Assembly: GCA_903813345.2 (NCBI GenBank)
Contig: CAIIXF020000001.1
Location: 10,726,001 to 10,790,000, forward strand
DNA length: 64,000 bases
From: Owenia fusiformis
Taxonomy: Eukaryota
Reading direction: 5' to 3'
The translations under genes and the position numbers were made by a program. Under the pieces are notes generated by a model. It saw only the letters and a list, made by a program, of their open reading frames with translations, was not told the DNA's origin and did no database searches. Shown one piece after another: positions 11,101 through 60,419 of the stretch (its first letter is position 1; each line of letters opens with the position of its first letter).

Positions 11101-14100
11101 CTTACCTCAGAGTACATGTAAATAACGAATTTATTTCTTTATTGAGGGTATTTCGAGATAAATTATCAGAATTTGATTAGAGATTGGGGGATTAACTCAT
11201 TATATTCCTGGTGGTGTGACTTTGACATTGACGAATTGCAGAATTATTCCTAAATCTACCGGGAATAATTACGTGTGTACTGGAATATTTTCTTATTTTT
11301 TCAGTTCACCTTACAAACCCCACGTTTCAAACAGTAATGTATTTCTATGTTCTCACTTCTACTGTTGCCCAATATCTGACATATTACTGCTCTAGCTCTG
11401 GGCTGTTTGCGCCAGGAAAACATAAACTTATCTGTTTTGTATTTAACGCTTTGATGCGCTTTTCTGCCCAAATCTTCCGACGTTAATTGTGTGAATGATA
11501 CAAATGCCAGAGTTGCATTTGCGATACTTCTAGGTATCATGTCCCGCCTCCAGGCGGCTCTAACGATGATACACTAAAAACGGATCTGATAATCCTTGGG
11601 AGGTTTCAATTTGATCTAGAAAAAACTTTAAAATGTAAACTTTTGGTTATTTTTTACATGTCTTATTTGTTTTTGCTCAGTTGTGATTCAGTTCTTGTTG
11701 ATTTGATTGGAATTCATTGTTTTTGCATATCTTACAGATAATAGTAGTTCGACTGGAACATGTTTTAATTAATTACCACAATGAGAAACACGCGCAGAGA
11801 GTTGTTCTGAGGTAGGGTCTTACAGCTGAAGAATCGCAGATTTTTAGATACATATCACTCTGAGGATACAGTCTACGACAGCTGTATGCGAGATTAACAT
11901 TCGTCTTACATGTCAGGGCACCAAGCATTTGTTGAAGAGCCACGGGTCTTCGTTTATTTACTTGGAATCCTGATACATAATATCTAATTAAAGAAAGCTG
12001 CTTTAAGTATGAGGAACCCATCTCTGAACAAGTTGTGGTTGCTAACCGTGTCTCGAAACGACGCGAAGCAAGGCGTATCATTGCATTTATAATCCAGAGA
12101 GAGATGAAACCTGTCAAATGCTCTGATGATATTGTTGCTAAACATTTCTGTGGCTCCTGGGCTCTTATTACAGTCATAACAAAAGTCAGAGAGGAGGTTC
12201 ATTCACAGTTCTGTGATCTCTCTGTGATGGTCGTTCCGGTGGCCACCAATTGGAACTTGCTGTGACGCACGATGGTCGTTCGTGGCCACCAATTGGAACT
12301 TGCTGTGACACACCATGGTCGTTCGTGGCCACCAATTGGAACTTGCTGTGATACACGATGGTCGTTCGTGGCCACCAATTGAAACTTCCTGCAACACATG
12401 ATGGTCGTTCTTGGCCAACAATTGAAACTCGCTGCCACAGTTTTCATTGAACAATTTGATGTGCAATGCCAATGACATTAGTTTGGTTGTGATTGTCCAA
12501 CGAAAAATAACTCAGTTGAAGAATGCTGCTTTATATATCGTCATTCGTTGAAAGAATGGAGTTCATTGACTAATGGCTGGTGGTTCCCAGAATTAGGATC
12601 CGGGTTGTCAATGTATATACTTAAGACTTTATTACATTGACGATGTGGGGTGGCCAAATGAACCATTAAATAACATCATCAGGGCAACTATACGAGGTTT
12701 ATCTCCCTATTACTCAGCCTGAGTCAAGTTCTACGATGTTGTAAACATTCTTAATTACAAATGCCCTCGTATTATCTGTTACCGTACCCTTAAATCCAGC
12801 GTAATTAGTTGTAACTCGTCCCTAAAGTGAGGCTCGACGAGGGCTGTCTTTGAACTTTGTGGTTTAAGGTCATAAAATAAAAAAGTAGTTAGATACCTCT
12901 TTTAAACATTGTTAAGTACACCGCTTGGTTACTACTTTGCACTGCAAGTTCTCTTCGAAGAGAATTACAATATATAAAATGTATAGTATGAAGATTTGAG
13001 AAATTGATTTCTCCTTAAATCCACAAAATACAAATATTACAACAGGTATAAGATGTAATTTTTCGAAGGGGTCTAATTTTTTATGCTTTGTCTCAAAGAA
13101 TCAATTTTGAGCGATATCACAAACAAGAAATGTGCCAAAAGTCGAAATTCGGTCAACCAGCTCATGACAAAGGTTGATCATAGAATGCTCCACTCATCTT
13201 TCATTCTTTTACGATTGATTCTATTTTTAGATCGATCAGGCCTAAAAATAACTTATTTCAAATTAACTATGTTCATCTACTGTCTTGATGAAATATAATG
13301 ACGTAATTGGGCTTGTATTTTCTATTGCTATGTTGTGCCAGTCCATCAGCGGCTTATCAAAAACACGTCTTTAACACTTGGAATCTTTGCAGAATAACTG
13401 CGCGTTTTGCAAAAATTCAGACAAGGCTTTCAGACATAAATTTGACACATGCTTCCAACCGTCATCAGGTTTGGATTGTTCAGCAGACGCTATGTCAAAA
13501 TAGAAGCATTTGAGAAGTATCTACCATTGACAAGTTGTGCTTTAAACTTGAGGTTATCATTAATTAAAGGAATCTTCAACAGGTGCTCTTTTTCACCTGG
13601 ATGACGATACATAAACAATAAACAGTCTGCATCATGTTACACCGTTGGGGAAATATTTTGAAACATGTTATACCTCTAAGCATACTGTTATAGCAATGAT
13701 CTCACGTTCAGTCTGGGAGAGTTTGAAGGTCCATAGACTTGTATCAACAGTATTTCTCCCCCAACTAGTAGGACTTATATATATTGGATAAATGCGGTTG
13801 AATAATTACACACGAAATGAATAACAAAAACCCAAAACATTGAAACCAAGTCTCTGGAAAGATCACAAATAGTAGGTAAAGTTTTGATAAAATTCCCCAT
13901 TAGATGATGGGAGGTCAAATCTGTGTGTAAGTTTAGGCTTACCGGCCTTTCCTTCATGTTCAATTTCTGGATATGGTCAAATAAACAAATGGACCTTCGG
14001 ATGTATCCTCAAACATTTCCATTTGGCAGAAACAATGTTCAAAAGCAAATGGACATATATCACTCAGAATATATAGACTACAGATGGTCTGGTGTGTTTC

Positions 14101-17100
14101 TCTTATTGTTCACAAGAGTAGGTACTATCTGTGGACTGGAGCGGGCAGAACCACTTTTGACGTTTGACCAGCGTATGGCTGGTTTTATCAGATACTACCC
14201 TATTACCAGCATTTACTATGGGTCAGTGCTTCTCAGATGCTTCATGACTTCATTCTGAAGTATCCACTAGTGATTTTATCTTGCATTCTATTGAAGGAAT
14301 GATGTTATCTGGCGTTCTATTGACAGACATAATGTTCATTTGTGCCTGATGTTGAAAGATAGCGATATTTCCAAGACGTGGTAAATAGAAAATGATCTAG
14401 AGTCAAGAGTAGCACTTGGCTCGCCTCAGTACTATAACCATACTATACCAACCAAGTAAACTTTAAAAACACCATATCATGTCTTGATAACTTTCAAATA
14501 TTTCAGTCCAATGTGCTGTCAGTCAAATGTTTCCCTATCTCGCAAGCATCCTCTTTAGTAATGATATTTGCAACATTTTATGTTCCCTGAAACTGATGCC
14601 TAATAATTCTTGTCAGATTTCTGTCAGATGTTTACCACAAATAAATCGCTATTGTAAGAGTTGTTGATTTTGAAATTGAAATATCGCTATTTAAATCAGT
14701 AAGTCAGGAAATGGTTATTTTTATAATAGTTTGTCTCAGATACTAGTAGTTGAGAAATAGCGAAGTTTGTTGTTTATAGCGCACTAGTATTTTAGCTAAA
14801 GACTACGAAGTGTTGACTACGAAGAAGGTTTAGGCAGTTACATATATCTAATGAAAAGTCAGGATTAGAACAAAATCATATTCTCTGACCTTAAAAACTG
14901 ATGACTTTAAACACGAATCGCAAAATTGCTATATTGCCAGAAAATCTGACAGATTTGCATAGCCTATATGGCTTAAACTTTGTTTAGTTTATGCATAGGG
15001 AGCTAGGTTAGATTATTAATAGAAAAAACAAAGAAAAACAATCATATGGTTATAAATAATCTGTCAGTCATTGATAATTCCCAAGAGCATTGCCTAATCT
15101 GGCCGAGACGGTACATTTTGGCTGATCATGGTTTTCTGACTTTGTTTCATGATTGACAAGCAGGTATCTTAATTGGCGTGGGAGGAGAGAATCTTAACAC
15201 CGTGATTTTCACATAGAACGATCTACTGTCTGTTTGTGGCATTATAATGGTCTGTCACAATTATTGCCCCTGAGCGACTCCGAAATTGTGACACAGGTCG
15301 ATCTCAGGGTCAACAGGATTGGGGAAATCACATCATGATAAACCATGACATCTCATTTCTTCTCAGCCTTGAGATGTTTCTGGTGAAAAATGAAGATGTT
15401 GCGGCAAAATCGGCAAATAATTTGTCCAATCTTGGCTATATGATTCATCCCCGGGGATTTATCCCTATGTATTATAAGGCCATTAACAGAAGTAGTTATT
15501 AGCGTGTAGGTAGACGGTTCTGCTGATGAAGGCGGTTCACAACCCACATACAAACCTAGCTACCGGATACTGAAATATTCATTTGTACTTTATTAATTGT
15601 CTGTTGCATTTAGATCAGTGGTTGTTTGATAGATGATGCTCCTATCTAGCATTCCACCTGGTCTGATGTCAGTCAGAGTAGGAGCTAATTAAATTAAGTA
15701 TTGTTTCTCCTCTATCTAGCCTCGTGAACTGATAATTTCGTTCATCTGATGGCTCTTTAATTAAGATAAATGCGTTAGGTCTAAAATAGCGAAAGGTTAT
15801 AATGCTTTCGCCTTACTTCTCCCGTCCTGTTTATCAAATAAAATAACGAACATCACAACATTCCTAATTCCCGATCATTCAACACCAAACTACTTTTAAC
15901 CAATGAGTCTCAGCCATGCGTTAAATTTCATCCTTTTTAGATTCCTGCAATTTTAATTTGAAGGAATTTGGGGTGTTTTGGTGCAATATGCACCAGCAAC
16001 AATATCCATGATTGAAGCAATGCCATTTGAACAATTGAGAAAAGTGTTTACGGTCGTTAATATGCTGCTTTTGTCGGTATAGGCAGATACATATTGACTG
16101 TTTCTTAAAAAAATCTAAATTTAGGCTGACAGAAATAATTTAATTGTTTGTGGGTACATGTTCGTCTACATTTAATGTTTTTTCATCACCAGTAGACCGT
16201 AAAACAGGTACGTCTTGTTTAGGTAAAATGAAATGATTAACGGTCTTGGTACTTGGTTTGTGTAAAAGTAGGAAGTACTAAAAGACGCATTCACTTGGAA
16301 ATGTGTACAGACGTATCACTCCTATGACTATAAGCATCTTCGGATAAGCTTCCCCTAACTTTGTTTATGTTAAAACCGTGTTAATAGAAATGAACCGAAA
16401 CTAAAAACGTTTAACCTTTACTTGATGTTCATGCAGATTCAATAGAACTAAGGAAGCAATACAGACTTTGTCAATGACTGTTTCTGAGGCTAATACACTT
16501 AAGGGACCAGAAAGTAAATGGGATCCAATGATGTATTTAGCAGATCATACTCTATGTCCATGTGTGACATAGATGAGATATATCCCATTCGTAAATTGAT
16601 TATCAATTATGTTATGTACGTGTTTAGAATGTCAATTAGTGACATACATCCCAATGCAAGATCCCTGTGTTCCATCAATCGTTGGCAATATTGTAATTGT
16701 TTTTACGTTCAAACCCAGGTTTTGACATATGAGAAACTGGTTTGTTTCTCAATAACAATCGGCAGTTTCAAGCTAAGAGGGATTTACAAACAAATCTGGA
16801 CTTATTTCCAAACATGATCCGGGAAATACAGCGTTCATTGAGGGAATGTGTCAGGGATCAGTCAGCACGGGAAGGCAGCCATGACAAATGAGTGGCAAAT
16901 GCTTATAGAACATTAAAGATCATATCACCCATAGCCTGCCAAAGCAACCCGTCTCCCTCGAGAAAAACAACATGACATCTAGTCTTGAAATGCAAAAACG
17001 AGTTTAAAACATGGAGATAGCCATACATAAAGGAAACAGACAAAGAAAAACCAATGTGTGATGTGTAGAAATTCAGAAAAATATAAATTCTCTCAGATTG

Positions 17101-20100
17101 TTTAGAAAAGAAAGGGAGTCAAGAATGGGCAGAGGGGAATTTAAGAACAAGCAATCGCTTATTTACAGTCTCGGTTGAACCATGTATTTTGGTATTGTTT
17201 TCCAATTCCTTTTGAAATGTAAGTAAGGTAGTTGATTTAAGAAATGTCTAACTGTTTTTTTTCCCAAACATAACAGTTGATTTTCAAGCCATAATATACA
17301 GAAGGTCCCTTTAAAATGGGCAACTCTCTCCTGCAATCTTGCCATTTTTAATTGTCCAGGTACCATTTACAAAAGTATGACTGTCACTGTATTTTAAACA
17401 TAGGAGTTTGCCTGTACATTGTATCTTAAAGTAGAAATGTTTTTTGATCAAGTATATCAAATCAGAATACGTAATTACCAAAAAAACTTTGCAGTTTAAA
17501 TGGGTATCAGATTAACTTGGATCTGACTATACGTGACTGATATTCATTTCAATACCCAATGCGGTCATAGAGATCATACCATCAGCACCAAAACTGTAGG
17601 TTCATTTGAGATACTCAAAAAGTAGAAAATTATTGCTATAGACTGAGTATCATTCCTTCCAATCTTACTCGCATGTACAAGGGGCTCCATCGCTTCTTCT
17701 GCAGCAATAAAGGTCTAAAAGTCACATTTAGATAACTAATGAATGCAGTTAGCAATATAGCTGAAGACCATAAATATGGTACATCGCCCTCTCATGCCGA
17801 ATAACCATTTAAAAACTGATTTGGAACATAAAAAGAGTTTCTGAAGATATGCCAGTGATCATTGATTTGTCAAATCAGTCATGGTCATCCATTACTGTTT
17901 TAATAGTCACTTTTATCAATCAAACAACTCGTGGTTTTATCTCTTCTCGGGCGATCACATTTTGATGTACTAACACACAAGATAACCGAACTCCCACCTT
18001 CAAAAACGTGTTTGGTGAAATAAATCATAATGTAATTTAAATAAAATATATGAGACCCCGGTAGAATAAAGTCTGCTCATTTTGATCCATCGTTTTACCG
18101 AACAACTCGTTCGTGGTCATAATTGCGGTTTTTTCTTTGACTGCTTCAAAGAGGTTTCTAAAATCTATGGCAAGTACCTTAAGAAATCCTCGAAATTCTC
18201 ATAAAATGCTCATAGAATTTTGAGTTAATTTGTTATTAATGTTTTTTGCTCTTCACTTATGAAGGAAAGTAGGGTACTTGAAGATGCTGGTATCGTTAGA
18301 ATGCGATTCTCCCTCTATAGAGCTGCTATACAGACGTGCCTTTACCGATATATCGTCTATCAATAGAGCCTTCATCCATTAGCTCAATTTTACAGCTATT
18401 TCATTCTTATTTTATCTAAATACTGCTGCATTTTATATGGACCTCCAAGGTATTTAATTGTGGAATAAAAATGCGCTGACAAATCTCTTATAGTTCTAAG
18501 GCTCTGTTTTAAATTTACGACAGCCTAACGCTCGTCATGTGGTTCTGACTTACCTTTATCCGCCTTATCATAATTCGGGGAGATTTGACGAGGTTACGCC
18601 ATGATACATTCGTTGATAATGCCATATAGATTATAGGGAGTACTGTTATACATTAAAACTGACACCCCTTTCTATGTTCTATATCAACAGATTTACAGAA
18701 ACAAGATGCCATAGCTGTAACGCTAAATTGATGATACGCAGGTACACGTTAGACAAGACATTACACGTGTGATGATGGTAACTGAAACTGAGAACAAACC
18801 AACAAAGCCGTGGAGTCATAAAGTTAAATCCGCATCATTTATCATCTAGACATGCCACAATTTCGCACACGAAAAAACCTTTACAAACCCAAACACTGAC
18901 ACTGACATTTTAAACAGGATTTACACCTTAATTTTAGATTTTTATATGAAAAACTGATTTATGACTTTCCCGTACCTGTGTATTAGTCCTTCTTACAGAA
19001 ACTAGTCGTTTATCATAGTCCTTTTGAGAAATGTCGACCTTTACCTAAGTGACACTTCAATAAATTTGACTTATTTTAAATCTTAATAACCGCAATTTTT
19101 TTTAATTCCAACATTGACGAAATACAACTGTAAAAGTCAGAGTGCCACGGTGCTATCTTATTTAAGATTACAAGTTGCCATTCAGTACCATTCTTCGTGA
19201 TCCCCCTCCACAATTCTGAAGAATGAAAAAAATATTTGATTATCAGGAAATCTGTCGTATGCTTCGGGGATCGTGCTCCGGGGTCAAAACAAGATCATAT
19301 ACGGTTTAACTGAGCGTGAGGATGACACTGCCACATTTGCTGTTCTCATTTGCGACGGTAGAATTATTTGTCGTTCTGTACATTTTCAAATAAGTAAGAT
19401 ATATTTAAACAAACTGAAATAAAGCTCAACAGGTCCACATACACTCACGTAGACAAATGTTTAAAGTGAGCATATGTTTATGAACGTAATTCAGTGCGAA
19501 GGCAACGTACTTGGGGAACTTAAGCAAGTGAAGTCAGTTTTACTTCATCATAGGTACTATCAGTCAATAGTACAAACTCTATCACTAGTTTTTCGAAATT
19601 ATTTGACGTCAATAGAAATCCTTAGATCAACCAAAATTATTCATTATAGTTAGCGGTAAACAGCGGTGTTTCAGTAGCGGCCAGCAGTTCACCGGTAGCA
19701 GTCAACAAAAGTTACCAGTGACAACAGTACACTGTAGCGGTCAACAGTATACCGTAGCGGTCAACTGTCGGTGTATTGTTGACTTTTAATTAACCAATCA
19801 AAACTGAGTACTGAAACCAGGGTGTTAACAAAGCTGATGACTTAACGCACGAATGAGTATTATTGAAGTAACTGATTAATCCAGGTCTTGTTTAAAACTC
19901 ATGTCTGTACTCCGAACTGTAATGACCCTGAAACATCAAGGTCGGTGATACCCTGAAATATAGAAACTTCATTAGGAAGTCGGAATCGAATATAACAGAT
20001 GGTTAAGGTTGAATAAGTAAAGGTTAGCTGGGTCGGTCCTCCAGGCGTGATTTTATTTCGTTTTCGCCAGTGTTTACATGTTTTCTGGAGGATGGTTCTT

Positions 20101-20850
20101 GTTCACGGGGTTCGGTGTCTGATGCATTCAATACTGGATTCGTCATCAATTCTGCCTCTTCAGCTCTGGAACAATGTGGTTGAATTGTTCGAGTAAATAG
20201 TTTTCTCTTTTCTAGAAGGATCTGGCTGGTTGATTCCTCTCATCAGTTCCACTGAGATGACGAGAGCTGCCATCTTTAAAAGCGTATATATTGTTCTACT
20301 TTACAATCGGAACCTATGATTTTACCTGATGACCCTTGATCTTGTTGAAAATTATTAATATGTGCCATCTTTGTGCTTTCAGGTTATAGACGACAACATG
20401 CGTGTGGAGTGTAAATGTCACGGCGTTTCGGGTACATGCGAGCTGAAAACCTGCTGGAGGGCAATGCCCACTTTTAGAACTGTGGGTGAAAAGCTGAAGG
20501 AGAAATTTGATGGCGCAACAGAGGTTGAACAAAGACGGATTGGAACACGAAGACAGCTTCTACCTAAAAATCCCCAGTTCAAACCTCATACAGGTTCCGA
20601 CCTGGTGTATTTAGTCCCATCTCCTGATTATTGTGAGATGGACCCACATACAGGGTCAATAGGGACAAGCGGACGGTTGTGCAGTAAAGCATCTAAAGCT
20701 ATAGACGGTTGTGACTTAATGTGTTGCGGAAGGGGGTTCACTACACGTGTTAAAACAGTGACTGAGAGATGCATGTGCAAGTTTCATTGGTGTTGTTATG
20801 TGAAATGTAAGGAATGCCAGAGAGAAGTAGAGGAACACACGTGTTTATGA
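5117..20850 (+). CDS. Wnt4: Wnt4, complete gene, 4 coding exons (5117-5199, 6436-6671, 9506-9780, 20383-20850), 353 aa
   Basis: The exons join in frame over GT-AG introns (phases 2,1,0). Signal peptide [21 protein letters not shown]. Wnt motifs: [54 protein letters not shown] (palmitoleoylated Ser), [43 protein letters not shown] and [13 protein letters not shown] are Wnt4-type. Confidence 0.95.
6436..6671 (+). CDS. Wnt4: Wnt4 exon 2
   Basis: TGTAG acceptor, reads ALGLSQ...[16 protein letters not shown]...NQ, GTAAGG donor. Confidence 0.95.
6920..7134 (+). repeat. Dispersed repeat; second copy at ~37646-37862
   Basis: About 215 bp (TCTGTATTGTCATAATTATGATGAATTCC...GTTGCCTACCCTTCTAGTTGAAAG) recurs in the same orientation in a NAGLU intron. 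Confidence 0.8.
7597..8472. mobile_element. Tc1/mariner-type MITE with long TIRs in Wnt4 intron 2
   Basis: TIR CACTCCCCTCCATAAGTTTGGCAACC...; about 230 bp arms, near-perfect; TA on both flanks; no ORF. Confidence 0.85.
9506..9780 (+). CDS. Wnt4: Wnt4 exon 3
   Basis: TTTCAG acceptor, reads [16 protein letters not shown]...[17 protein letters not shown] donor. Confidence 0.95.
10547..10733. mobile_element. Short MITE (CAGGCCCG...CGGGCCTG); related inverted copy at ~30390-30562
   Basis: About 15 bp imperfect TIR, flanked by direct repeat CATAG/CATAG, with a poly-G tract inside. A reverse-complement homologue lies in a NAGLU intron. Confidence 0.7.
12226..12435. repeat. Minisatellite, 43-bp unit, about 5 copies
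   Basis: GATGGTCGTTCGTGGCCACCAATTGGAACTTGCTGTGACACAC repeated in tandem with no spacers. Confidence 0.95.
20383..20850 (+). CDS. Wnt4: Wnt4 exon 4 (terminal)
   Basis: TTTCAG acceptor, reads [17 protein letters not shown]...EEHTCL then TGA. Confidence 0.97.
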
Positions 20851-22864: not shown

Positions 22865-23628
22865 AAGCCCAAGACTCAGAGATGCATTGTGGAATGACCA
22901 TTCTTTTCAGGCATTGTTTCCTAAAATTAATACTCAATGCTGCGTTCTCGTGCAAATTGGGAAGCACCATTTTCAAGGAATGGTCTTTCGACATTGAACT
23001 GAGTCCATGGCTTAAATCATTAAGTATGCAACTGAATACCATCCTTATAGTAGGATGACAAAAAACTAAAAATACATCAGTGCATTTACCAAGCTTAGGG
23101 CAAAGAAATTATTTTCATTATATCAAAATCACATTGCAGTTGGCAACTAACAATTGCTGCACCTCGAATACTTTGGGATTGTTCACATTGTCCAAAGGGC
23201 TTAATATCAATTAGAGGCTCGTCAAAAATGCAGATGACTTTACGTAATGTTTGAAATGTTTATGCACATTGTATTTTCATTTATTTCAATTGATTTGATC
23301 AATCGGGGCCTAACGTGAAACGGTAAGTAACTAAATTGACCATTATGTATCGTATGTTTAGTAACCAGGAATTCATCAGAGACATACCAGTAGTCTTCGC
23401 GTTTGGTTACTTGTAAGTTAAGGAAGGTCCTACCGCGAGTATCGCAGACTCAGGAGCGAAATGTTTCGTGACGTGTAACGTAACTTCAAAAATATAGTTT
23501 GTAGGTTTCCAGAACACAAAGTTAAACATGGTTTGATATAAAGTTGCTATAATCAAAAATGAATATGAGCTTCGTTGTCTCAACAGTTGCGTTGCGGTCT
23601 TCTCGATTAGTTGGTTCATTTGCAGAAA

Positions 23629-24664
23629 ATGGTAAGCTCGTCAGTTTTAGCTGTGCTTTGCATTGCCTTGGTGGGATGTGTTCTCGCAGACCCTGCTCAT
23701 AGGTCTCATCACGGACACCACGCTCATGGTCATAGCGTTCATGGACACGGTCATCACGTTCATGGTCACGGTCATCACGTTCATGGCCACGCACATCATT
23801 CACATGGACACAGAGCTCACGGACACCATGGATCTCACCACGGACATCATTATGGTTATGGTATGCATAAATATAATTAGCCTAATATCTGTTCTTTTTT
23901 CTCGCGATACATATAATAAAAACACAATATAATGCCAAAATTCATTGAAATCATCAGGTTTATATTCGTTATTATATATGTCATGATATAGTGACAAACG
24001 AAAAAATAGTACTTTTAAAATGACAATTTTTTTGTCCATATAGTACTACATACTTGGATGAAGTACTGGCCATCCTGGCTATAACAAAACGAAAAAGGTC
24101 ACTTTTAAAATGCCAATATTATCTGCCTAATATCTTGACTGATGATTCGTTCTATCATTGTTACGATAGTTCTCCGACTCTTTCGGAAATTCCATCACTC
24201 CAATTTTCAGCTCCTCTTGGTAGATTACGCTTACCCCATCTCCCTACCTCATTTATCAAATTTTCCTGATCATACATCTCATTCTCTCTCAAGTTTATGA
24301 CGCCATGTCTCATCTCCCTAGTCTTGTAACCCCAGTGACCCCATCCGGCTCCTTTCTTTCTAGCACCACGGTAAATCACCCAAAACTTAAAGAATGTTTC
24401 AATCTATGTAACGCAATTACTTTCATTCTTCTAGACCCCTGCAAGGGACGAGATGACATGGAGTATAACCTTGACGCCGCCTTCCGCGCTAAATTCCCCT
24501 ACGCCGTACCCGCCTGTAGCTTCGTGAAGTGCCACGGTGGTAGAAGCTTCCTACAGTGGTGTGCCAAGGGAACGATGAACGATGAATGGGGACGTGGGTT
24601 CTGCTTATACCAGGACAATGTTGGTAGATGTGGCAAGCCTTTCCCCGGATACGGCCATCATTAG
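23629..24664 (+). CDS. Secreted His/Gly-rich protein with C-terminal six-Cys chitin-binding type-2 (CBM14/peritrophin-A)-like domain; exons 23629-23860 and 24435-24664; 153 aa
   Basis: Signal peptide MVSSSVLAVLCIALVGCVLA. 28 His in the next 57 residues, with VHGHGHH repeats. Phase-1 intron G|GTATGC...TTCTAG|AC joins in frame to DPCKGRDD...CSFVKCHGGRSFLQWCAKGT...GFC...RCGKPFPGYGHH*. Cys spacing is C-x24-C-x4-C-x9-C-x13-C-x8-C. Confidence 0.8.
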
Positions 24665-26470: not shown

Positions 26471-29400
26471 TTACAAGTATACCATATCAACACTGTTTCC
26501 TACATTTTCAAACTGCATTTGGAACTTCCTGGCAAACTTCACAAATTTCTTGCCCTTTCTTGTGAGCTTAGGGAGTTTCTTGAAGTAGAGTTTGCTGGAC
26601 CTTGTGAGTGTCTTTGGTCGATACTTGGAATGTATTGTTGTTGAGATCTGGTACGAGTCACCTGGAAACAAATACAATAATGGTTGAAAAAGATATAATA
26701 GAAGGTATAACAGGGAGAAATTAGCCAGAATAACAAAACATTGCCATGTAAGGAGATCACACAATAAAAAATGTAAAAGAATAATATGATGAGAACTGGG
26801 GGGGGGGGGGGGGGGGCAGAACAATTCCTATCTGAAATTTAGACTGACAACATACATATATATGTGGATTATTTTCTGTGATTGAAGAAGTTCATATTCA
26901 AAATCTCCCAATACTTTAATTCAGGTTACGTTTTCCTGATACATGTATCATACTCGTACAAAGCAATGGAGTCCTATTAATTACATCATTGCTGAAAACA
27001 TATTTATTACACCTACCTGTCTCAGTGATGGGATATGTCTTGCCATTTTGAACAAATGCAAGTTCTACTTTCTGGAACACCTCTTCTCTAAATGCTGTAG
27101 CATTATATGGCACACCCTACAACATAATACCAATTTTAAGCAAGGTATATTATCTGACAAAGCCTACAATATAATATCATTTGAAACTTGGCATGGTGTG
27201 TATCATTCACCCTTCTGTCTTATTTGGAGATAAACTTCAGCATTTTTGGAACTGACTGAATGTTGGTGCATACTAGTTTCACACTAGTTTGAGCATGAAT
27301 AAAACTTTCTTGAAAATTGAATAGAATGGCACACTATACAACATAATCCAATGTGCACAATAAGAGACAAATACAGTAGACTGTTTTAACAAACAAGACA
27401 CAGACTGAAAATATCACAACCCTCTGTCATTCTATTCATGTCTTTGTTTTTATTCTCAGAATCATACCTTTGACACTGAATCCATGAGGTATGAAGAAAA
27501 TAATTGCCATCTAGGTTTGTAGTAATCCATGACAAGACCAGACCATTGTTTGTTGGCATAGTCCAGAATCTTAACAAAAAGAAAAGCTGTATTATTAATT
27601 CATTCAAAATGGTATTCATGCTACAGTAACACCTGTCTTAGTCAACACCTCTCTCTAGTGAACACCTGTCTGAACACCTACCAACACTGAATAATATTTC
27701 TCAGCAAAAAATGTTCAATATACCCAGGTTTTACTGTATCAGAATAAAACAAAAAAAACTTGGATCAAAATATCTTTGTATTTATTCTTCTTGCACATAT
27801 AAGACATTATTTCAATGTCCGACCATAATAGGCTGCAACAAAAGGGAGGAAAGGGTTTAATCTTCATAAAATTACTCACACCAAGAGAACTATAACAATA
27901 ATATAACATTAACATATCAATGTTTATGAAATCCAAAGGAAAAAAACATGATCCCCACAATGATTCATTCAATGCAAGATTTTGTAGTTTTAATTTTTAA
28001 TTTGAAAAAATCTGAAAATGCAGCCTCAGTAACCTACCTCACCATTGGGCCCCCATGTAGTTATCTGGTATCTTGCATTCAGGTCATATTGCTGTTTCTC
28101 TTTTGGGTTGACTCCCAGAGCCTGAGCTGAGGCAAGCCATTTGCCAAGCATGAAATGTTCATCTGTGGCAAGCACCTGATCTAGATCTTCTAGGAGGTCA
28201 AGTAGGGCTCCTATCGCATTCCTGGTAATACAGTACATTAAAATACAACCCTGTTAATACATTAAAACACAATCATATTCGAGATTCACATAAAAGAATG
28301 ACTGAATTTTACAGTACACGTATTTATAATATTTAGCATGTGTTCCTTCCACTTCACTGATTGGTCGAGAAAGGGTCAGTGTGGTAGATTTAAAATGATT
28401 TATTACCCGGACTGTCACAGGCACCAATCTTTGGGGCAGGGCTACTAAACTGTAATACGGTCTATACTAGGCAGAGGGTACTTCATAACTAGACTCTGCG
28501 CGCAGGGTAGTTGCGTGGAATATTTGGACAAAATTTATGTAATGCAGCCAGTCTGTCCAGCAGTACAGAACAATGAGAATATCTCATTTTTCAAGGTGCG
28601 ATAAAAATAGTAAACGCCTTACAGGAGGGCATCCTGATCTTTGTTCTTGTAGGCAGTGATGAGGTCTGTGTACTTCTGTATAGAGATAACCTGTAGACTC
28701 TGCCTTGTCAGATCCACCAAGTCATACCTAAATATATAAAAGGAAATATGTAACATTGATCACAAATCTCTGAGCATGAATGAAACCAGGGATAAAGAAA
28801 CCAGTGGTTCAATACCACAACATTCCTCACTACTTAAAATTCATTTTATTGTTGTAACCATGGAAATCATGATGTCATAGTTGTAATGCCTGGGTCACAT
28901 TTGCTGCGATTCACCGGCCGGCGCCTGGCCGGTTGAGTATTTTGTTCAAAATTGAATACATTTCTGAGCAAAATACTCAATAAGCCAGGTGCCGTAGTGA
29001 AAATCGAGTAAAAGTGACCAAGGCATTAGAGACAAACTCCAAAATTCTTAATTTAAGAAATTCTTCTAGTAATGAACCCCATTATAGATTACCATAGTAT
29101 GAAATTTGAAAATCAAATTGGTAAGCGAGAAAACCCTGTAGATGAATTCTCTAACACTGCATATAAACTTAGAGGATGTTTTCAGGGTATAATAAGCATA
29201 TTTCAAAGACACCAAAAATTCTTTATTTAAAATGGATATGAATACAGCCATTACAAAATGATTCACAGTTTATTATAGCTTTGGGATTGCATTTACAGTT
29301 TGTAATCTTTCTTTACCAAACAAATCATCATCAATGTGTAAAGGAATGATAGTAGTGTCATATATTCTTACTTGAACAGTTTGCTCATTGAGAATGGTTT

Positions 29401-32400
29401 TGACTGAGCAGCCATGATCATGTTATCCCAGGCCATTAGGACATCATTAGGGTCATACCACACCTAGAAGGAAATGTGGATGTTATTTCTGTAGTATGCA
29501 GTCATCTACTAATATGACATGTATGTAATATATGTAACTATGGCAACGTTGCAATTTACTACCTTTTAAAGAATTCATACGCTTAAACTGAATCTTTTTG
29601 TGCACATTAAAATAAATGTGTATTTCTAAAATTTGTACATTAGACTAAATAATAAATGTTGGTTAGTTGTGTTTCTGATATTCTATATGTGTTTAATACT
29701 GTACACAGGGTGTGAAGAAATTATTGGTGGAATATTTTCACCAATAAATCTTCCTGCCATCAGATATTATAAACATTGAAATAAAATGATTCATAGTTTA
29801 TTCTGATTTGTTCAATTACATCAAAACCGCTTAAATCCAAAATTCAATAAAATCCATGATTTGATATCTAAATTAATCCCATGGCTTATCTAATAGCAGG
29901 GCTTATATAAAACAAATATACAAGTTTATTAAAACCTACCGCTGGTTTAATGCTCAAACTAGGACGAGACTTGAATATTTGACGACTTGCAAAGTTGGAA
30001 TAGCCTGTTGTGCAATTCAATATACCACTCTAGCAAACATGCAAGAAAAATGAAACATGCAGCTACTAAAAGTGTCTCAAAATACAGAAACGTGGGATTA
30101 ACGTAACACAACCAAAGAATTGCACGAGAGACAAAAAACTCATTAAATACATGTAGCAGCTATAACACCTGTCCTTAAGGTAATTTTCAGTCCATGATGA
30201 CATTACATTTGCTGCACAAGATTGTTGTCTGAGTTCTTTAACACTCGATGCAATAGGTTGAGGGTTGGCCCATGGAGTAACAAGCACATAATAACAAAGG
30301 AAACCAACACAATGTTGATAATGTACAAATGGGGCCAAGCAGTGAGACATTTGATTGATGCCTTATATTATTCTTGCTGCTATGCCCGAACCCTCCGAAC
30401 CCCCCCCCCCACCAAAAATTCTTTCAAAATCATGCAGTTTTTCACCATTCTGAGCACTTATCATGTGATTTTGGCCATTTTTGGGCTAAAGTTGTAAAAG
30501 TGACCCCCCTGGAATTTTTTAAAGTGTGAACCCCCTCTTGGCAAATCCTGGCTACAGGACTGTTACTAAGCCATGCAAGCGAGCGTATTACAACACAAAT
30601 CTGGACTCACGCTTTGCTTGATATCAAGTCGTGGCCTCACAATAACTTGAATGCCATCTTGGCCTACTGTGGCCCCATTGGTACAGTTCAGCACTGAGTA
30701 CTAGATTAGTATGCATGACATACATGTAGTGATGTAGTGATTCCACAAACATGTATACCAGGTACATGCACAATTTGCACATAATGTGGCTCAAAGTAAT
30801 TGCTCATCAGTCAACCACAAGCAGTTTTTCAGTAAAACTTGAATACAATTTTGTATGGTGGTGGTATTGAAATGGGGGCCTGTATCTGATGTTAAGTAAA
30901 CTTGGCGTGATAAAACTGTGCCCATGAACAAAACTGGTACAGCTTTCCCATATTGTCAAATTTGATACTGCTAACCCATTAAGCTCCTGGTGGTTGACTA
31001 ACACGTCAAGAGCTAACTCCATGTCCACCATAAAGCCAGAAGGCATAATCATAAGGATATTCATGTATGTGGTTCCCAAGTGGTCAGAAAATAGATACAA
31101 GACTAGCATTGTTATCTCATTAGTACAAGCACTCAAAGGGGTCTAAAAGCCAATTATAAAAGCAGATACAGCCTCTAAAATATCAGACACACTGAAAAGG
31201 ATATTACTGTTGAAGTGTCTTCAACAACATCTCAACTCACTGTCTGCTTCATGTCCAGTCTTGGAGAGAGAATGATCTGAATGCCTTGGGGACCATCTTT
31301 GACTCCAGCTCCATTGAATACAGAGTTCTACGGAGAACATGCAGACATTGATTGTAATTAATACTTATGTAGCATAATGTTAGCAGAGGGGTATAGACAG
31401 AGGGAGATAACTAAATACTTTGCAGTTGTATTGAGCTCTTAAATATTGTTAGTATTAATGTTTAAAAACTGGGAAGGAACTCTGCCCTGGTGTAATGCTG
31501 ATGGTTCATTCAAAGCAATATATTTTCTGATATGCACAATGAATGACATGATTAAATGGTAAATGGAATAAATCATTTAAGCAACTTTAGGGACACTTCC
31601 TTCAAAGTTTAAAAGCTGAGCAGAAAAGCACATTATAAAACTAGATAATGGCAACTCCGCGGAGTAGCAAATCCCAACGAACAAAATATCAATTAGCGAA
31701 TTCCAATCAATTATACTCATTACTTTGGTTAAAATTGAAAAAATTAGATTTTAGAATTGCGAATTCCTGCAAAGCAGCCATTTTGAATTTTCTGAGATAC
31801 AAATCTGAAAAATAATACCATAATTGTGATCTACTCCAAAATTCCTTCAATTTGAGTATAATATAGCCATACTTTGAAGGGATCGAAAAATTATTGCGAA
31901 ATCGTACATTAGACGGCCATTTTGAATTTTACGAGGCTCGAATCAGAAAAAAGATACAATATTTGCAATCTGCTCTTAATTGCCTTTCATTTGAGTATAA
32001 TAAAGCTATACTTTAGAAAGATCTAAAATTTAGCGAAAATTTCTGTTTTCCTGTCCCCCCATACACGGCCCCTGTGGGTCAGGATGAAAAACACGGAATA
32101 CATGTGAAATAGATAAATGTTGTGAATATACTACCAAAATTTCAAACAATAATATTAATTACTTTGGTTCAGAATGAAAAATTTATGATTTTTGTGAAAA
32201 AGTCCCGTCATTTTTAAAGCGGCGGCCATCTTGAAAAATTTACACCAATATACATCTTTCCACTAAATATGAGAAAATCCGTCTACTAGTATTTGAGTTA
32301 ACTTCCGGACAGACGGACGGACTGACTGACTGACGGACGGACAGACGGATGGACGGAGGGCTTCACTATATCCCTACCGAACTTCGTTTGTTGGGATAAA

Positions 32401-35400
32401 AAGAAAGAGGGCTTCTATCAAAACATTAAAGATGCATTATACCATAGCTTTCTCGCCCAGACAATCAACGATGTCCCTTTGTTTGCTTATATAATATCTC
32501 ACATACCATGGATATATCTTGAGAATAACTTATGGGTATATTATTGCCAAAACATTGAAATACTGTACGCCCGGTATTATTCGCGTGCGATTAACTTTCA
32601 CGCTTTTCGCGATTATCGTCGCGAAATTGCCAATTAAATCCCCGGGAATTTGTTATTACTACTATTAGTAGTACAGTACTGTGCAACTCCAGAATGGCTC
32701 CCAGAATGCAACATTGATACTCTCACGATTCTTGATGTTGTGAGTACAAAATTCGAATAACTACTATTCTAGTAATACAAAATTCGAATAACTACTATTC
32801 TAGTAATACAAAATACGAATTCAAACTGCTTTTTCGTTTTAAAATAAGACCGAAATTAACGATGCGATAATAGAAGTTGATATGCAACTTGCCGATGATA
32901 AAGATCCCAGTTATTGTATATCTGATCCAACTATGACATCAGGTAAGTCGCAATTACTGTACATCTACTAGTAATTTAGCTTGAGAATTCCGAGAATAAT
33001 GAATTTCAAACTAGTGAAATTCGGGAAATTTAATAGCCGCGAAACCTTTTTTTTGCAAAATTCGCGAAATTAAAGCTCGCGAATAATACCCGGCGTACAG
33101 TAATCAACAGAACAACCAACCTCTGGAATTAAACAGAATCGATTCCTCGGCTAGCGAGGGGAATCCCCGTTTAGTCACACAAGCGCCCAAACACGCCTTG
33201 AACCAAGCAGCCAATCAGGTTCATGATAAACAAATTCAATGACCAATCAAATAACAGGAGGATTTTCCTGGTATATTTAAACTTCAGATTGAATCAATTT
33301 CTGTTAAAATAATTAGATCGGTCAGCACAATTGCAAAATTAACACTGAAAGCGGGGGATTTAAGACTTCTTCTTTGGTAAGTAGATGGGTGAATATGTGG
33401 TTAGGCTCAATATGCAAAAAGGTCCAGAGGGATCTTGATTGTGCTATCCTATGGTATAGAGCCTCTTTAAGATGCAGCTAACTGAGATTTAAACAGATGA
33501 AGGACTTAATGCAAGGCCACATGCTCCTTTGCACTTTGAATAGCAAGATGCAAGCTATATGTAAGAAGCACTGGCCCATGGTTATTATTATGCACTGTAT
33601 CTATTTTGCTCTTAACCCATGGTTGATCGAAAGTTTCTAAATACATTTGCCATCTGATGGATGTTCTCACTTGGCTTGTAGACTCCAGAGATTCTCCTGG
33701 TGAGAACCTTGGCTTGAGAGATTAAAATGGTATAATTCAACCAGAAGAGCAGAGGACAACTGTACAGATGTCACAATGGGTGAAGAACAAAATAGGTATC
33801 ACATCAATCACACAAGACATGTTTGTTTGGACACACATGCAAGACACACATAACATACATCAATGGATAGTCTCTTTGAGGGTCTCTTGCTGATGACATT
33901 TTTCCTACCATGGTGCTTCAAGCCATCTGTAGCATTCAATATACCTGACTAGAGTAGAATGACACACAGGATAATACATAATATACCTAACACCATAGGT
34001 TTCAAGCACATGTAGATTGACCAGATTTCTCCAAACAAAATAGTCATAAAGTTAAAACATGCAAACCAAATGTAAATCTGAAAAATCAACTGATCTGCAG
34101 ATCTGCAACTTCATGGTGTTTGAAGAAATTAAATAGACTCCAATAACATTTTGACTTTAGAGGATATTTCATAGAAACATGGATTTCCACTTCAATTTAA
34201 AATCTAAGCTTATGTTTCCTCCTTCATTGGTGCCAACTAAAAAATGAAAATAATATTGAAACATTCTGAAAAGATAAAAAAGTTTTAAAGATGAATTTAT
34301 GCATAAATATTAATTTAACTTAAAATATGACTGAAACTACATGTACATGTAGGTCTAAACAAATATGAGTGTTAACAAGTTTATCAATTTTGGTTACTTT
34401 TTTGTTTTTACTTCTTTTGTCTAACTTACCGCTAATAAAGTCCAAGCCTTTTCAATGTTATCATTTGTTCCAGTATATCGTCTCTTCACAAAAGCAGCAA
34501 CCCTAAGTAATACAAGAAATATGTGTAAATGAATAAGTATATGTACATTTATATTATGGACACTGGTTGACAGACATTATAATAAATTTGAACTTATGAT
34601 ATACCAAATTAAAGATAAGTAAATCCCCTATCAATTGGTATATAATATGACATATTTTCAAAAATAAAATCAATATTTATTTTTGAAATACAAGTGTTCA
34701 ATTTTTTTGGACCACCCTGTAGATTTAAACTATTGTTGACCTCTCAAAATGAGAATTGTATATGTAGCTGTAAACCAAAAGTAACTGAGTGAGATTCACT
34801 TTCTAATATATACTTGTACACCTATCTAGAGGTAAACTGGCTAAATTGTATACATCAAATGTTATCCAAGAATTCACATTAAATAGACAGGACTAGAAGT
34901 ATTCAAACCCAGGAAGGCGTACTGTTATCAGTCGTCTAATCTCAAAAGATCAGATCATCAGAAAATCCTTGTAAAATACCTACATGTGTGAACATCTAAA
35001 TAAAATAAACCTCTTGATATGAACTCTTCAAATAATTCAACCAATATTCATTTGAGACTAATTTTACCGTAATTGCAGTTACAACTTACCAGTCCATGAT
35101 ATTCCTTGGTTCTGTTCTCCAGATATTCTCATTCATGAACTCATAGACCATGTTGTTCTGATTGATCCCCTCTGGTGTAAGGCCTGTACCAATCATAGTG
35201 CTGTCAGTGAAGTTTCTACCAACAAATGGATTCTGAAATTACAAGAATAATATCCAACTTTAATGATGTAAAAGTTACAAGACACGTTCGGTGTTTTGAC
35301 CTACAAATCAAAACGTTCAGAGTAAAGAAATCTGTTCTAATTCAATAAGTGGTACCACAAAATTATGATTTGGATCAATAGATCAGCTCGGAGGCCAGTG

Positions 35401-50953: not shown

Positions 50954-50975
50954 AAATGGTTTATGTTGGAGGCTC

Positions 50976-52409
50976 TTGTATCAATCATATAACAAGTATA
51001 AATGTAAGGTTTTTGTAGATGGTATTTTATCGGATACTTTTCCTGTTAATAGAGGTGTTCACCAGGGCGGGATATGTTCTATGTTTCTCTACCAGTTCTT
51101 TATAGCAGACCTTTTGCAACAACTGGTAGATTCGGCAAAAGGAGTAAGAATTGGTGAAACGTCTGTAGCATGTCCAGCATACGCTGATGATATTGCCTTA
51201 ATTGCAAACAATCCAGAAAATCTAAATGCTCTGTTGAGCATTGCTGACATGTATAGTAAAAGGTGGAGGTTTGAGTTTCATCCAGGAAAATGTGTAGTGC
51301 TTAAGTTTGGTACAAACAAAAATGCTTTTTGTGAATGCAAATTAGGAGAGAATATTCTAAAAGTAGAAAAATCTGCTATACATGTTGGCATACCTTTAGG
51401 CAAAAGCTCAGAGCATGTATCAAATTTGATTTCACGCAGTAAAAGAAAATTCTTTTCTCTGCTTGGTTTAGGAGCAAATGTAGGTAGCTTAAATCCTCTG
51501 CTAGCTTCCAAGTTATACTGGAGTTTTTGCTTCCCAACAATGACGTATGGCAGCTCTGTAACGCAATATTCAATAACCGAAATTGAGTCTATGGAGGATG
51601 CACATAGATCCATTGGCAAGAGAATACAAAGCTTCCTGGTAAATACCCCTGACCCGATGGCGATAAAACCACTCGGATGGCTTTCAGTTCAAGCGCGAAT
51701 CGATGTAGATCGCCTTATGTTCATCTGGTTCGTCTTATCGTTACCGGTACAATGTATTTATAAAATTGTATGCATTTATCGACTGTTGAGTATAATCCAC
51801 ATTGGAACCTATCGCTCAAGTAAATCTCCATTGGTCTCAATGTGGGAAACAACAATGAAATACGACCTACATGGGGACGTTTTGAATATGATAACTACTG
51901 CTAAGACACCACTCAAATGTGTCTGGAAGAGAAAAGTCATGAACGTTGTCCAGTCGTTTGAGATGAGACGCTTTTTCGTTCTTAGCTCCTTATATCCAAC
52001 ACTGAGACCAATTTTGAGATGTTTCACTGTTTTAAAACCATTTTTATGGTGGGAAGTTGCCAGGCGTTTTCCAAGACGCTTACCACAATGTAAAGTTATA
52101 ATGAAAATGATATCAGGAACATACAGGATATTTAATTACGGACAACCAATGTCTGAACGAGTATGCTTACTATGCAATTTAAATGTCACTGAAGACGTAC
52201 AGCATTTTTTACTATTGTGCCCAGCGTATATAGATATAAGATACAATCTATTTAGTGAATTATATAAACTAGGAGTCAACAACTTTTGTGAATTCATATG
52301 TTTCATTTTCGGTGGAGGGAGCGAATATGATCCTGAAATAATGCTTCCATTGCTGGACACGATATATGAAATGCACAAAAGAAGGGATTACCTTCTTAAA
52401 TCCTTGTAA
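50976..52409 (+). pseudogene. LINE reverse transcriptase ORF fragment (477 codons, uninterrupted)
   Basis: RT motifs QGG and YADD and a CCHC-type C-terminal motif; the endonuclease and N-terminal RT subdomains are missing. Confidence 0.9.
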
Positions 52410-56842: not shown

Positions 56843-57852
56843 GTAATGGCACAAGGAATTTTAAGAAAAACATTTTCAACATTTTATGAAAAATGATCCT
56901 AATATTCACACATAGCTAGGCAAGGTGTGTCAGATTCCAGACAATCCAAACAGAGTATTCACATAATGAACAATGTGTGAAATATCAACAACACATGCAA
57001 GGTCACTAGTTAAACAGTTGTCATGGGGATGGATGGATTTTTCACATTGGATTTGATGACTTACCAACTTGACTCTTGCAAAAAATTTAATTAAAATGTG
57101 TTCTTATTTTGGGCTTAAATCCTTAAATATTTTGAAAAATCACATTTAGCTGGACATGCACTTTCTGACCAATGAGAACAATGTTTAACCATGTGTAATA
57201 TGAAATGATAGTCAGTGTGTATGGCTTTTTTTTGCTTTACAATATATGTGGGTGTGACAACTAACATTTTATTTTACAAAAAGCTCAACATTTGAAATTA
57301 AGTTGAAAAGTTTCGCAGAGCTCATTTTGATTTGGCCTTGGGTGTATTAGAGAAGTATATTGCAATGCAGTTATATGAAAAAGCATGTTCTGATTGGCTG
57401 AAGTTTGACACACCTTGCCTAGGTACATGCAAATAGGTTATTTCTGATCAGACATAAGGGATAGTATTCAGATGGTGACAGTTGTGGAAAACAAAGGTAA
57501 GATAATAATTAACCCCTCCCACTCCCTTTTGATATTGATTTGCCTTTCACTTCATTTTTTCAAAATTCAAAATTTCCAAAAATCATAATTTACCACTTCC
57601 CTTTAAAATGATTGACCCTGCTACTTGACCAATGTTGATATCTGGACAGCATTCCTAACTGAGGGGTTTCACTAGAATTTCTCACAACAGGCTAAATAAA
57701 TAAAAACAACACGCAAAATTAATGGAAATCATAAATTTAACATGGAAAAGTTCCTAAAAACAACAGGCGATTTTGTGAAAACAACCAATGAAAATCGCCT
57801 GTTGCCAGCTGCTAATGAAACCCCTGCTAACTGTGCATAAATTGGCTTCCAG

Positions 57853-58601
57853 GTAATGTGAGTATATGGAAGATCTCAAAGCTGTTTGAAAGTGCAAGGC
57901 TCCTCGTCTCATTGTCTGGCAATTACCTTGACTTTCATAAATTGATGGCAAATGATGGAACAATGTTTATCCGGTCTGGACATTACATAATATCTGATGT
58001 ATTATACCAATCAGCAGCTATCAACTGGCCCCTCAAGGCTACGACCAGTCTATCGTTCATTGGACGCACATCCACTAACCTCACAATTGAAATACGGGAA
58101 CAGTTGACCAATCAACATGTCGGAAGTCTCGAGTTCCAGTATGTTTATGTGAATCGCACAAATCGTAAATCGCAAGCTTTTCCTGATTGGTTCATCCAGA
58201 AGTACAGGCCACTTACAACTCTGGAAACAAGGCCTGATACGATGGCACCGTTATCACTACCAAGCAAAACATTTTCTTATGATGTCACTGTTCAATATAG
58301 CGACACTGACCGAAATGGGCATACAAACCAATCATCTTACTTAAAATATGGAATGGACGCAGCAACGAGTGCCTCCTTAGGGGGTGAATTCCATAACTTC
58401 AAACAAGACATGTGTATGTACCATGTCCAAGACTTCCAAGCTCTATATACAGGGGAAAGTCTGGTTAAAGATCAACTTGTTATACATACATGGGAAGATG
58501 GAACAAGAAAAGATTTACTGTTCTTTCAAATTCACAAAAATAACCGAGCAATATTTCACTGTAGGCTTACTCTTTGTAATCCAGCTTCAGCAAAGTTATA
58601 A
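57853..58601 (+). CDS. Double-hotdog acyl-ACP/acyl-CoA thioesterase-like, terminal exon 3A (ends -AKL, PTS1)
   Basis: CTTCCAG acceptor, phase 1. Motifs YVYVNRTNRKSQAFPDWF, VQYSDTDRNGHTNQSSY, YTGES. AATAAA at 58687 and 58795. Confidence 0.85.
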
Positions 58602-60245: not shown

Positions 60246-60419
60246 GTACGATAGATTACTTCAAAAAATAGTTTGTAATTTTAGGATGAAAATTATCTGT
60301 TTTTATACAGCACCTTTAACATTGAACAGGTTTTTCTATACTTTCAACTGGTAAATCATGTGTTTACATTACATATATACCATTACAGTAACATCAGTTA
60401 ACAACTTGTCTTCTTCCAG

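Follow-up and report, generated by a model that had tools for sequence, protein, structure and literature searches.

The 64,000-nucleotide (nt) window analysed here, from the annelid Owenia fusiformis (assembly GCA_903813345.2, contig CAIIXF020000001.1, positions 10,726,001 to 10,790,000 of the forward strand), carries on its minus strand a NAGLU gene, within which lies a cluster of four homologous exons that is the subject of this report. The translation of one window exon (50 residues) is 100% identical to an "unnamed protein product [Owenia fusiformis]" at NCBI (P0003, 796 amino acids (aa)), and tblastn of this protein placed the gene at about 46816 to 26474, in approximately 20 exons. Pfam searches with the window exons recovered NAGLU_N (PF12971, 1.5e-19), NAGLU (PF05089, 4.7e-15 and 3.1e-19) and NAGLU_C (PF12972, 1.6e-20), and the three-domain GH89 architecture of NAGLU_N, NAGLU TIM barrel and NAGLU_C is present. 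P0003 aligns with human NAGLU (4XWH) over residues 41-752 with an E-value of 2.3e-239. Its TFNEM and TPEGI motifs align with human TFNEM (Glu316) and APEGI (Glu446), which hold the catalytic glutamates according to PMC12938346. Judged by its sequence, the Owenia gene is NAGLU, a GH89 member with predicted alpha-N-acetylglucosaminidase activity; the Pfam domains on neighbouring exons and the match to 4XWH bear out the name given to it in an earlier sequence-only reading of the window.

The cluster is bounded by two constitutive exons, which like all its elements lie on the minus strand: an upstream exon of 73 nt (34502..34430), which ends in ...EKAWTLLA and has the donor gtaagt, and a downstream exon of 92 nt (29463..29372), which starts with VWYDPND. 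Between them are the variant exons a (33948..33859; 90 nt; donor gtatgt), b (31327..31241; 87 nt; gtgagt), c (30700..30611; 90 nt; gtgagt) and d (30029..29940; 90 nt; gtaggt), and the introns across the cluster measure, from 5' to 3', 481, 2,531, 540, 581 and 476 nt. Each variant exon has an open frame in phase 0-0, with AG before it and GT after it, and the positions, peptides, phase and splice sites of all four are exactly as first noted. Adjacent and homologous, in the same phase, of near-equal length and each with its own splice sites, the four exons have the makeup of a mutually exclusive cluster. The public Owenia annotation (P0003) includes exon b only.

Homology of the four exons was assessed with a segment profile built from 92 NAGLU homologues, whose seed contained exon b and none of a, c and d. 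When the window's 2,942 six-frame open reading frames (ORFs; minimum length 15 aa) were scanned with this profile, the four exons took the first four places (E-values 1.7e-4, 1.7e-4, 0.014 and 0.029), followed by a fifth match at 0.88. No fifth copy was found among the 2,942 window ORFs, and no duplicates of other NAGLU exons were found within the window. The pairwise alignments a-d, b-c and c-d scored better than 2,000 of 2,000 shuffles. Protein identity is highest between b and c (15/30), reaches 10/30 for both a-d and c-d, and falls to 5-7/30 for the remaining pairs; at 17-50% identity, the copies have nevertheless kept frame, length and splice sites. Among 53 segment versions placed in a tree (31 columns), b and c came out as sisters with support of 100/91. 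Of the two sub-pairs proposed from the sequence, b/c is therefore well founded; a/d is weaker, as its identity equals that of c-d and its likeness rests mostly on a common SGILN start. The proposed differences in charge and glycosylation hold: the net charge (K+R-D-E) is +5 in a, which has two His in addition, and +4 in d, so that both are basic, and it is +1 in the near-neutral b and c, while an N-x-T sequon is found in a (NAT), c and d (NCT), and not in b. The history that would account for these features is the tandem duplication of one 90-nt NAGLU exon into four copies that then diverged. An assembly or haplotype artefact was also considered and is excluded, because the copies are only 17-50% identical.

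Use of the variants was examined in three stranded Owenia RNA raw-read runs (X13, X14 and X15, of which about 6/100, 6/100 and 12/100 were read; tissues and stages unknown), aligned to positions 28600-35300 at a read-match threshold of 93%, and in contigs from a fourth run (X6), which belongs to another study and is of a kind not recorded. Exons a, b and d were each found joined directly to both constitutive neighbours, in the RNA reads as well as in the X6 contigs, where all six joints of these exons occur at depths of 150-333. In X13, X14 and X15, respectively, the joint from 34430 to a was covered by 1, 3 and 0 reads and that from a to 29463 by 4, 5 and 3; the corresponding counts were 0, 2 and 7 (34430 to b) and 0, 0 and 2 (b to 29463) for exon b, and 0, 0 and 3 (34430 to d) and 0, 1 and 1 (d to 29463) for exon d. 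As a control, the constitutive joint from the downstream exon to the next exon had 5, 4 and 14 reads. The strand of every read agrees with a gene on the minus strand, and the upstream joints show CT..AC ends on the plus strand, that is, GT..AG on the gene strand. The skipped lengths (481 and 4395 before and after a, 3102 and 1778 for b, 4400 and 476 for d) equal the GT-AG intron lengths or come within 1 nt of them (1778 against 1777 after b). The three downstream joints were placed 3-5 nt off the canonical sites; because the start of the downstream exon (GTGTG) resembles the intron starts after a, b and d (GTATG, GTGAG and GTAGG), we read this shift as an alignment ambiguity. Cross-mapping of reads among the variants was considered and rejected, as they are too divergent at the 93% threshold.

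Exons a, b and d are, with little room for doubt, real alternative exons used singly between the same neighbours. The expectation that the cluster is mutually exclusive is supported for these three, each of which joins 34430 and 29463, and not for c, which has no reads. Usage varies by run: X13 contains nearly a alone, and X15 mainly b and d. A Monte Carlo comparison of this run-to-run difference gave p ~0.007, a value based on a small number of junction reads (32) that are not mutually independent. The Owenia annotation lacks at least two expressed isoforms.

The flanks of the variant exons share a hexamer. UGCAUG is found, on the minus strand in each case, 115 nt upstream of the a acceptor (34058..34063), 18 nt downstream of the a donor (33836..33841), 16 nt upstream of the b acceptor (31338..31343), 70 nt upstream of the c acceptor (30765..30770), 34 nt downstream of the c donor (30572..30577) and twice upstream of the d acceptor, at 32 and 14 nt (30038..30061). 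On the sense strand, 8 copies occur in 5.3 kb, as against 1.1 expected from shuffles and 2.8 from the window's own rate, and within 120 nt of an exon there are 7 copies at the 4 variant exons versus 4 at 19 constitutive exons of the same gene. The regions upstream of a and d, exons that are 33% identical in protein, share a 21-nt stretch around UGCAUG at 81% identity. Such a concentration of (U)GCAUG in the flanks of variant exons is the motif pattern of Rbfox targets. In PMC2777236, (U)GCAUG bound by Fox-1/Rbfox proteins is described as repressing an exon from upstream and enhancing it from downstream, and these proteins are described as acting in the mutually exclusive choices of alpha-actinin, FGFR2 and egl-15; the mutually exclusive exons of unc-32 are likewise placed under Fox-1-type control in PMC3585155. 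Based on the motif positions and on this position rule (PMC2777236), we propose that Rbfox-type proteins would steer the choice, with b and d repressed through their close upstream motifs and a and c activated through their downstream motifs. Rbfox control of variant choice is put forward tentatively, as a proposal drawn from motif positions that we hold to be possible and somewhat short of an even chance.

Exon c is silent in the data read. Its RNA depth is 0 in X13, X14 and X15 (30616-30839) and it has no listed joint; its sole coverage in X6 comes from an unspliced contig with a depth of 25.5, compared with 36.7 and 41.3 for neighbouring intron contigs. The cluster may therefore be effectively three-way, with c a decaying pseudo-exon left by the b/c duplication and not a condition-specific variant, and we regard this as nearly an even proposition. 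In addition to the lack of RNA depth in three runs and the intron-level, unspliced contig of the fourth, the polypyrimidine tract of c (11/20) is weaker than those of the other three exons, and the X6 contig differs at 30631 by a non-synonymous change, Arg to Gly in RPRLD (codon read by eye). Furthermore, an intronic arm on the minus strand (30322..30337) is complementary at 15 of 16 positions to 30670-30685 in exon c, 332 nt away; this inverted repeat might mask the exon, or might be due to chance. Against decay stand an open frame of exactly 90 nt, an AG acceptor and a consensus gtgagt donor, the framework residues (SV-N-T and RP-L) retained despite 50% divergence from b, and a flanking UGCAUG pair of its own. 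Moreover, the silence was observed in four samples only, at 6-12% depth and from unknown tissues and stages.

Two introns of the cluster contain repeats. The a-b intron (2,531 nt) is enlarged by repeat or transposon insertions (31640..33530), among them an element resembling a miniature inverted-repeat transposable element with 28-nt terminal inverted repeats (32561-32588 and 33075-33102), a GGAC-type microsatellite (32306-32365) and a 117-nt tandem pair (31777-32032). These repeats are multi-copy and reach an RNA depth of several hundred on both strands; together with this depth, a joint that goes back 461 nt, from 32238 to 31778, and is present in all runs suggests highly expressed copies elsewhere in the genome. 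In the c-d intron, a G-run/C-run repeat (30392-30615) shows about 200-fold depth on both strands and hundreds of loose ends, and is presumably a dispersed repeat.

The position of the variant segment in the enzyme was derived from alignment with 4XWH and 2VC9, numbered with offsets of +23 (checked on Glu316/Glu446) and +25 (Glu483/Glu601). The segment corresponds to human R499-S528, 29-30 residues at the start of helical domain III. A framework is retained across the variants, consisting of the S-V/I-x-N start and the R/S-P of human R520-P521, and the middle of the segment and its C-terminal tail differ between variants. R520 and P521 are presumably disease sites in human NAGLU. At segment residue 10, the human enzyme has Ala508 and the variants have Leu (a), Lys (b), Ala (c) and Tyr (d); PMC12938346 names Ala508 among the residues that contact N-acetylglucosamine (GlcNAc) in docking on 4XWH. 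At the other end of the segment, residues 679-685 of the Clostridium perfringens GH89 enzyme (CpGH89) are aligned with the segment's final four residues plus the opening two of the following exon. According to PMC8225759, this enzyme has a Trp685 loop (680-686) that is absent from human NAGLU and is reported to limit the aglycone to GlcNAc-alpha-1,4-Gal (galactose), and its deletion gives 2x activity on GlcNAc-alpha-1,4-GlcA (glucuronic acid). The sequence-only reading had placed the segment in a loop near the active-site entrance, a placement that is supported by the docking contact of Ala508 and by the Trp685-loop alignment.

The resulting isoenzymes would share the same catalytic pair and would differ in the wall or entrance of the pocket, in charge (+5 to +1) and in an N-glycan (none in b). 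Probably, they differ either in the range of alpha-GlcNAc-capped glycans accepted or in the efficiency of acceptance. A different pocket residue, tail, charge and glycan make differing substrate specificity of the isoforms plausible, and a functional difference between the variants at the substrate site appears to have slightly less than an even chance.

The same exon is alternative in gene models of other animals. We compared named RefSeq/GenBank NAGLU proteins and found the exon alternative in the RefSeq (Gnomon) isoform models of 11 of the 15 genera examined, a rate that is biased because clusters were picked for "isoform" in the name. The boundaries of the swapped exon are common to all, after ...AW-LL-x and before [VIL]WY.... 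Among molluscs, Littorina saxatilis has four different single variants (isoforms X1-X4), Haliotis spp. have three variants, Patella vulgata has two isoforms (X1/X2), Babylonia areolata has two variants in each of two genes, Biomphalaria and Physella have alternative versions of the exon, and Ostrea edulis alternates between X1 and X3. The insects Anabrus simplex (X4/X5), Periplaneta americana (X1/X3) and Thrips palmi (X3/X4) follow the same pattern, as does the hemichordate Glandiceps talaboti (X1/X2), in which the swapped block takes in the preceding exon too. Several RefSeq models contain exactly one exon version each, and some contain two in tandem or none. No alternative NAGLU exon was seen in the models of Zootermopsis, Pomacea and Aplysia. 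A segment-profile search over 338 retrieved proteins identified 11 that contain the segment twice, each a previously known isoform. A shared-5-mer search with P0003 residues 487-570 returned only P0003 (1 of 9 candidates), and no annelids or Owenia a, c or d proteins, since divergence in this region is too great for 5-mers to be shared.

Other variations of NAGLU were also noted. In Periplaneta (P0035/P0153) and Anabrus X2 (P0152), other exons alternate between ...LKQNWVFVHNMLFWTTEKVRAYITAVPT and ...MLQGWLFVNSMAFWGEAQTEAFLTSVPL, and in Ostrea X2 (P0112) the block after HVPEATVL alternates; Owenia has single copies of these exons that are swapped elsewhere in cockroach, cricket and oyster NAGLU. 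The sawfly Neodiprion isoforms P0064 and P0185 differ by an 8-residue VGRRAGLL insertion at the junction after the swapped exon, exactly where the bacterial enzyme has its Trp685 loop.

In the tree of segment versions, which is weak given its 31 columns, the mollusc variants fall into clades that cross species: Haliotis X5, Littorina X3 and Patella X1 group together (100/93), as do a Haliotis variant and Ostrea (99/89). The duplications within molluscs are therefore old. The Owenia variants lie outside the mollusc variant clades, and b and c form a lineage-specific pair. Exon a is closest to the annotated exon of Capitella (13/30) and Tubulanus (12/30), above any Owenia paralogue, and exon d is closest to the exon of Paralvinella (13/32). 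The swap exon might be read as an old module, which would date at least from the Cambrian in molluscs and might be ancestral to bilaterians. Its versions would have aglycone or charge preferences, for example for sulfated heparan sulfate ends versus unsulfated or mucin-type alpha-GlcNAc caps, and vertebrates and holometabolous insects would have lost it upon intron loss. We consider the full combination of an old module, substrate-tuned isoenzymes, tissue-specific Rbfox control and later losses rather unlikely to be right in all its parts.

The variants could also be real and near-neutral, that is, redundant copies that act on the same substrates and differ at most in folding, glycosylation or stability. 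This would agree with the finding that the segment is the most variable part of its region in an alignment across animals and with the single copy that suffices in vertebrates and holometabolous insects. It is harder to reconcile with copies that have been kept intact at 17-50% identity, with usage that depends on the sample and with the concentration of regulatory motifs at the variants. The mollusc variant types, moreover, have been retained in cross-species clades since early gastropod/bivalve splits (again on 31 columns), and the segment contains a docking-predicted pocket residue and adjoins a known specificity loop. Near-neutrality therefore appears unlikely to us.

Competing RNA pairing of the kind known from Dscam exon 6 was considered as another way of controlling exon choice, with CUACAUGUACAUGUAG docking with CUACAUGUA-like selectors upstream of the variants. 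CUACAUGUACAUGUAG is a perfect 16-nt palindrome on the minus strand (34337..34352), 78 nt downstream of the upstream exon, and a weak candidate for a docking site. CUACAUGUA recurs upstream of c (at 29 nt) and of d (at 127 nt). On the minus strand of the window, CTACATGTA has 5 exact matches, 3 of them in the cluster (at +78 from the upstream exon, -29 from c and -127 from d), and a copy with one mismatch lies 67 nt upstream of a. The predicted duplexes of the palindrome with the 150 nt upstream of a, c and d have energies of -21.3, -21.4 and -18.6 kcal/mol. These values are no outliers, however, as they lie inside the range of 62 control intron windows (mean -14.4, standard deviation 3.2, minimum -25.4), and the well-used exon b reaches only -12.8 kcal/mol. 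An ungapped stem scan for docking and selector stems, which compared the first and last introns with the others, revealed none above shuffles, and the stems concerned are short (9-13 bp) and AU-rich. Control by RNA pairing is thus quite improbable.

Exclusivity in this cluster is not hard-wired. Its introns (476-2,531 nt) are U2-type GT-AG, and all exon lengths are divisible by three; U12-type introns were considered and rejected, as the donors are all U2-type. The joint counts nevertheless favour single inclusion. No variant-to-variant or all-skipping joint is present among the 15 joints listed of 87, and the strongest joints are a to the downstream exon (12 reads) and the upstream exon to b (9 reads), which argues against routine double inclusion of a and b. 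Independent cassette exons, with transcripts containing at least two copies or none being common, would draw on the lengths that keep double inclusion in frame, on the lack of an applicable steric, U2/U12 or nonsense-mediated decay (NMD) mechanism, on RefSeq models that contain two copies or lack the exon altogether (Haliotis asinina X1/X2, Anabrus X1-3/X7 and X6, Thrips X2) and on the 72 unlisted joints, but they are very improbable, since the two best joints are the opposite of those made by a+b inclusion, X13 has appreciable depth only in a (b bin 0.14, d 0), which is joined to both neighbours, and the summed reads into the variants (16) and out of them (16) are of similar order to those of the constitutive joint (23).

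Our preferred interpretation is that of a duplicated NAGLU exon cluster in which a, b and d are alternatives that would alter the substrate pocket and whose choice would be steered by Rbfox-type proteins, and we assign it a probability of about 0.7. Several points weigh against it. Junction counts are small, with 32 variant reads overall, and the constitutive joint 34502/35089 is likewise not among the 15 joints listed of 87; variant-to-variant or all-skipping joints may be among the other 72. None of the hard-wired means of enforcing exclusivity (steric hindrance, U2/U12 incompatibility, or frame shift with NMD) applies, gene models of Haliotis, Anabrus, Thrips and Biomphalaria pfeifferi contain two tandem copies, and exon c has no RNA support, with a depth of 0 in three runs and just an unspliced, intron-level contig in X6. 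As for function and control, the contact of Ala508 comes from docking and not from a complex structure (PMC12938346), no activity data for any invertebrate NAGLU isoform were found in the literature, and the UGCAUG pattern was noticed post hoc.

Human NAGLU is the Sanfilippo B enzyme, and what is unusual about the Owenia cluster is that the swapped piece is an element of the substrate-pocket wall or entrance of a lysosomal hydrolase. If the isoforms differ in substrate, invertebrates would degrade alpha-GlcNAc-capped glycans with an enzyme family generated by splicing, and the segment equivalent to R499-S528 would be a natural specificity or stability "cassette" of GH89. If the exon is indeed an old module, this would be a rare housekeeping lysosomal hydrolase whose substrate specificity is set by alternative splicing. 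Swapping of the same exon in annelid, mollusc, insect and hemichordate models also offers a system in which to compare repeated with inherited duplication.

The remainder of the window contains other genes and gene fragments. A Wnt gene (6398-20850, plus strand) is arranged tail-to-tail with NAGLU, and its last exon (20359-20850) matches Pfam wnt with 2.1e-65. In the ORF list, a His/Gly-rich ORF (23611-23880, plus strand) has a signal-peptide-like start followed by HGH-rich repeats. Upstream of NAGLU, a 484-aa ORF (50955-52409, plus strand) contains an RVT_1 domain (6e-13) and represents a retrotransposon fragment. Further on, three tandem single-exon paralogues of 256-269 aa (57831-58601, 60392-61171 and 62919-63728, plus strand) end in -KL or similar and have weak thioesterase-like matches, to 4HBT_2 in all three and to Acyl-ACP_TE_C in the second and third.

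Clusters of mutually exclusive exons are well documented, mainly in receptors, channels and muscle proteins. In the Dscam exon 4, 6 and 9 clusters, more than two homologous exons of equal length lie between constitutive exons, and their choice is under docking/selector control. The Owenia cluster resembles these in its multiple equal-length homologous exons between two constitutive exons, and differs in being far smaller and in that no docking/selector set above background was found. It is of the standard, tandem-duplication mutually exclusive kind, implicit in automatic models elsewhere and unannotated in Owenia. Judged by titles and the starts of abstracts, and with supplementary exon-catalogue tables excluded, no literature description of a mutually exclusive exon in NAGLU was found, and the cluster appears to be undescribed for this gene. 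The initial statement that no description was known is thus sustained for the literature and qualified by RefSeq, where models in 11 of 15 genera contain alternative versions. These isoform sets involve the same exon and the same boundaries as in Owenia; they are automatic models, and the Owenia annotation has b only.

For the proposed tuning of substrate, the Trp685 loop of CpGH89, located at the 3' end of the segment swapped in Owenia, provides a precedent (PMC8225759). Unlike the Owenia variants, this loop is a fixed insertion in a bacterial enzyme and not an alternative exon, and none of the variants has a Trp-containing insertion like that of CpGH89. Closer in organization are C. elegans unc-32 (exons 4a/4b/4c) and egl-15 (5A/5B) and vertebrate FGFR2 (IIIb/IIIc), in which tandem homologous exons are chosen singly and in a tissue-specific manner. 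Their choice is made via (U)GCAUG and Fox-1, ASD-1 or Rbfox proteins, as set out in PMC2777236 and PMC3585155, where Owenia offers the motif pattern only. Unlike in this set, the Owenia variants are all in frame and have no NMD back-up. The Owenia protein also differs in kind, as NAGLU is a soluble lysosomal glycosidase, unlike the receptors and the V-ATPase subunit of this set. The exon swapped in FGFR2 and egl-15 determines ligand specificity; in Owenia NAGLU, we propose that its counterpart would set the specificity for substrate.

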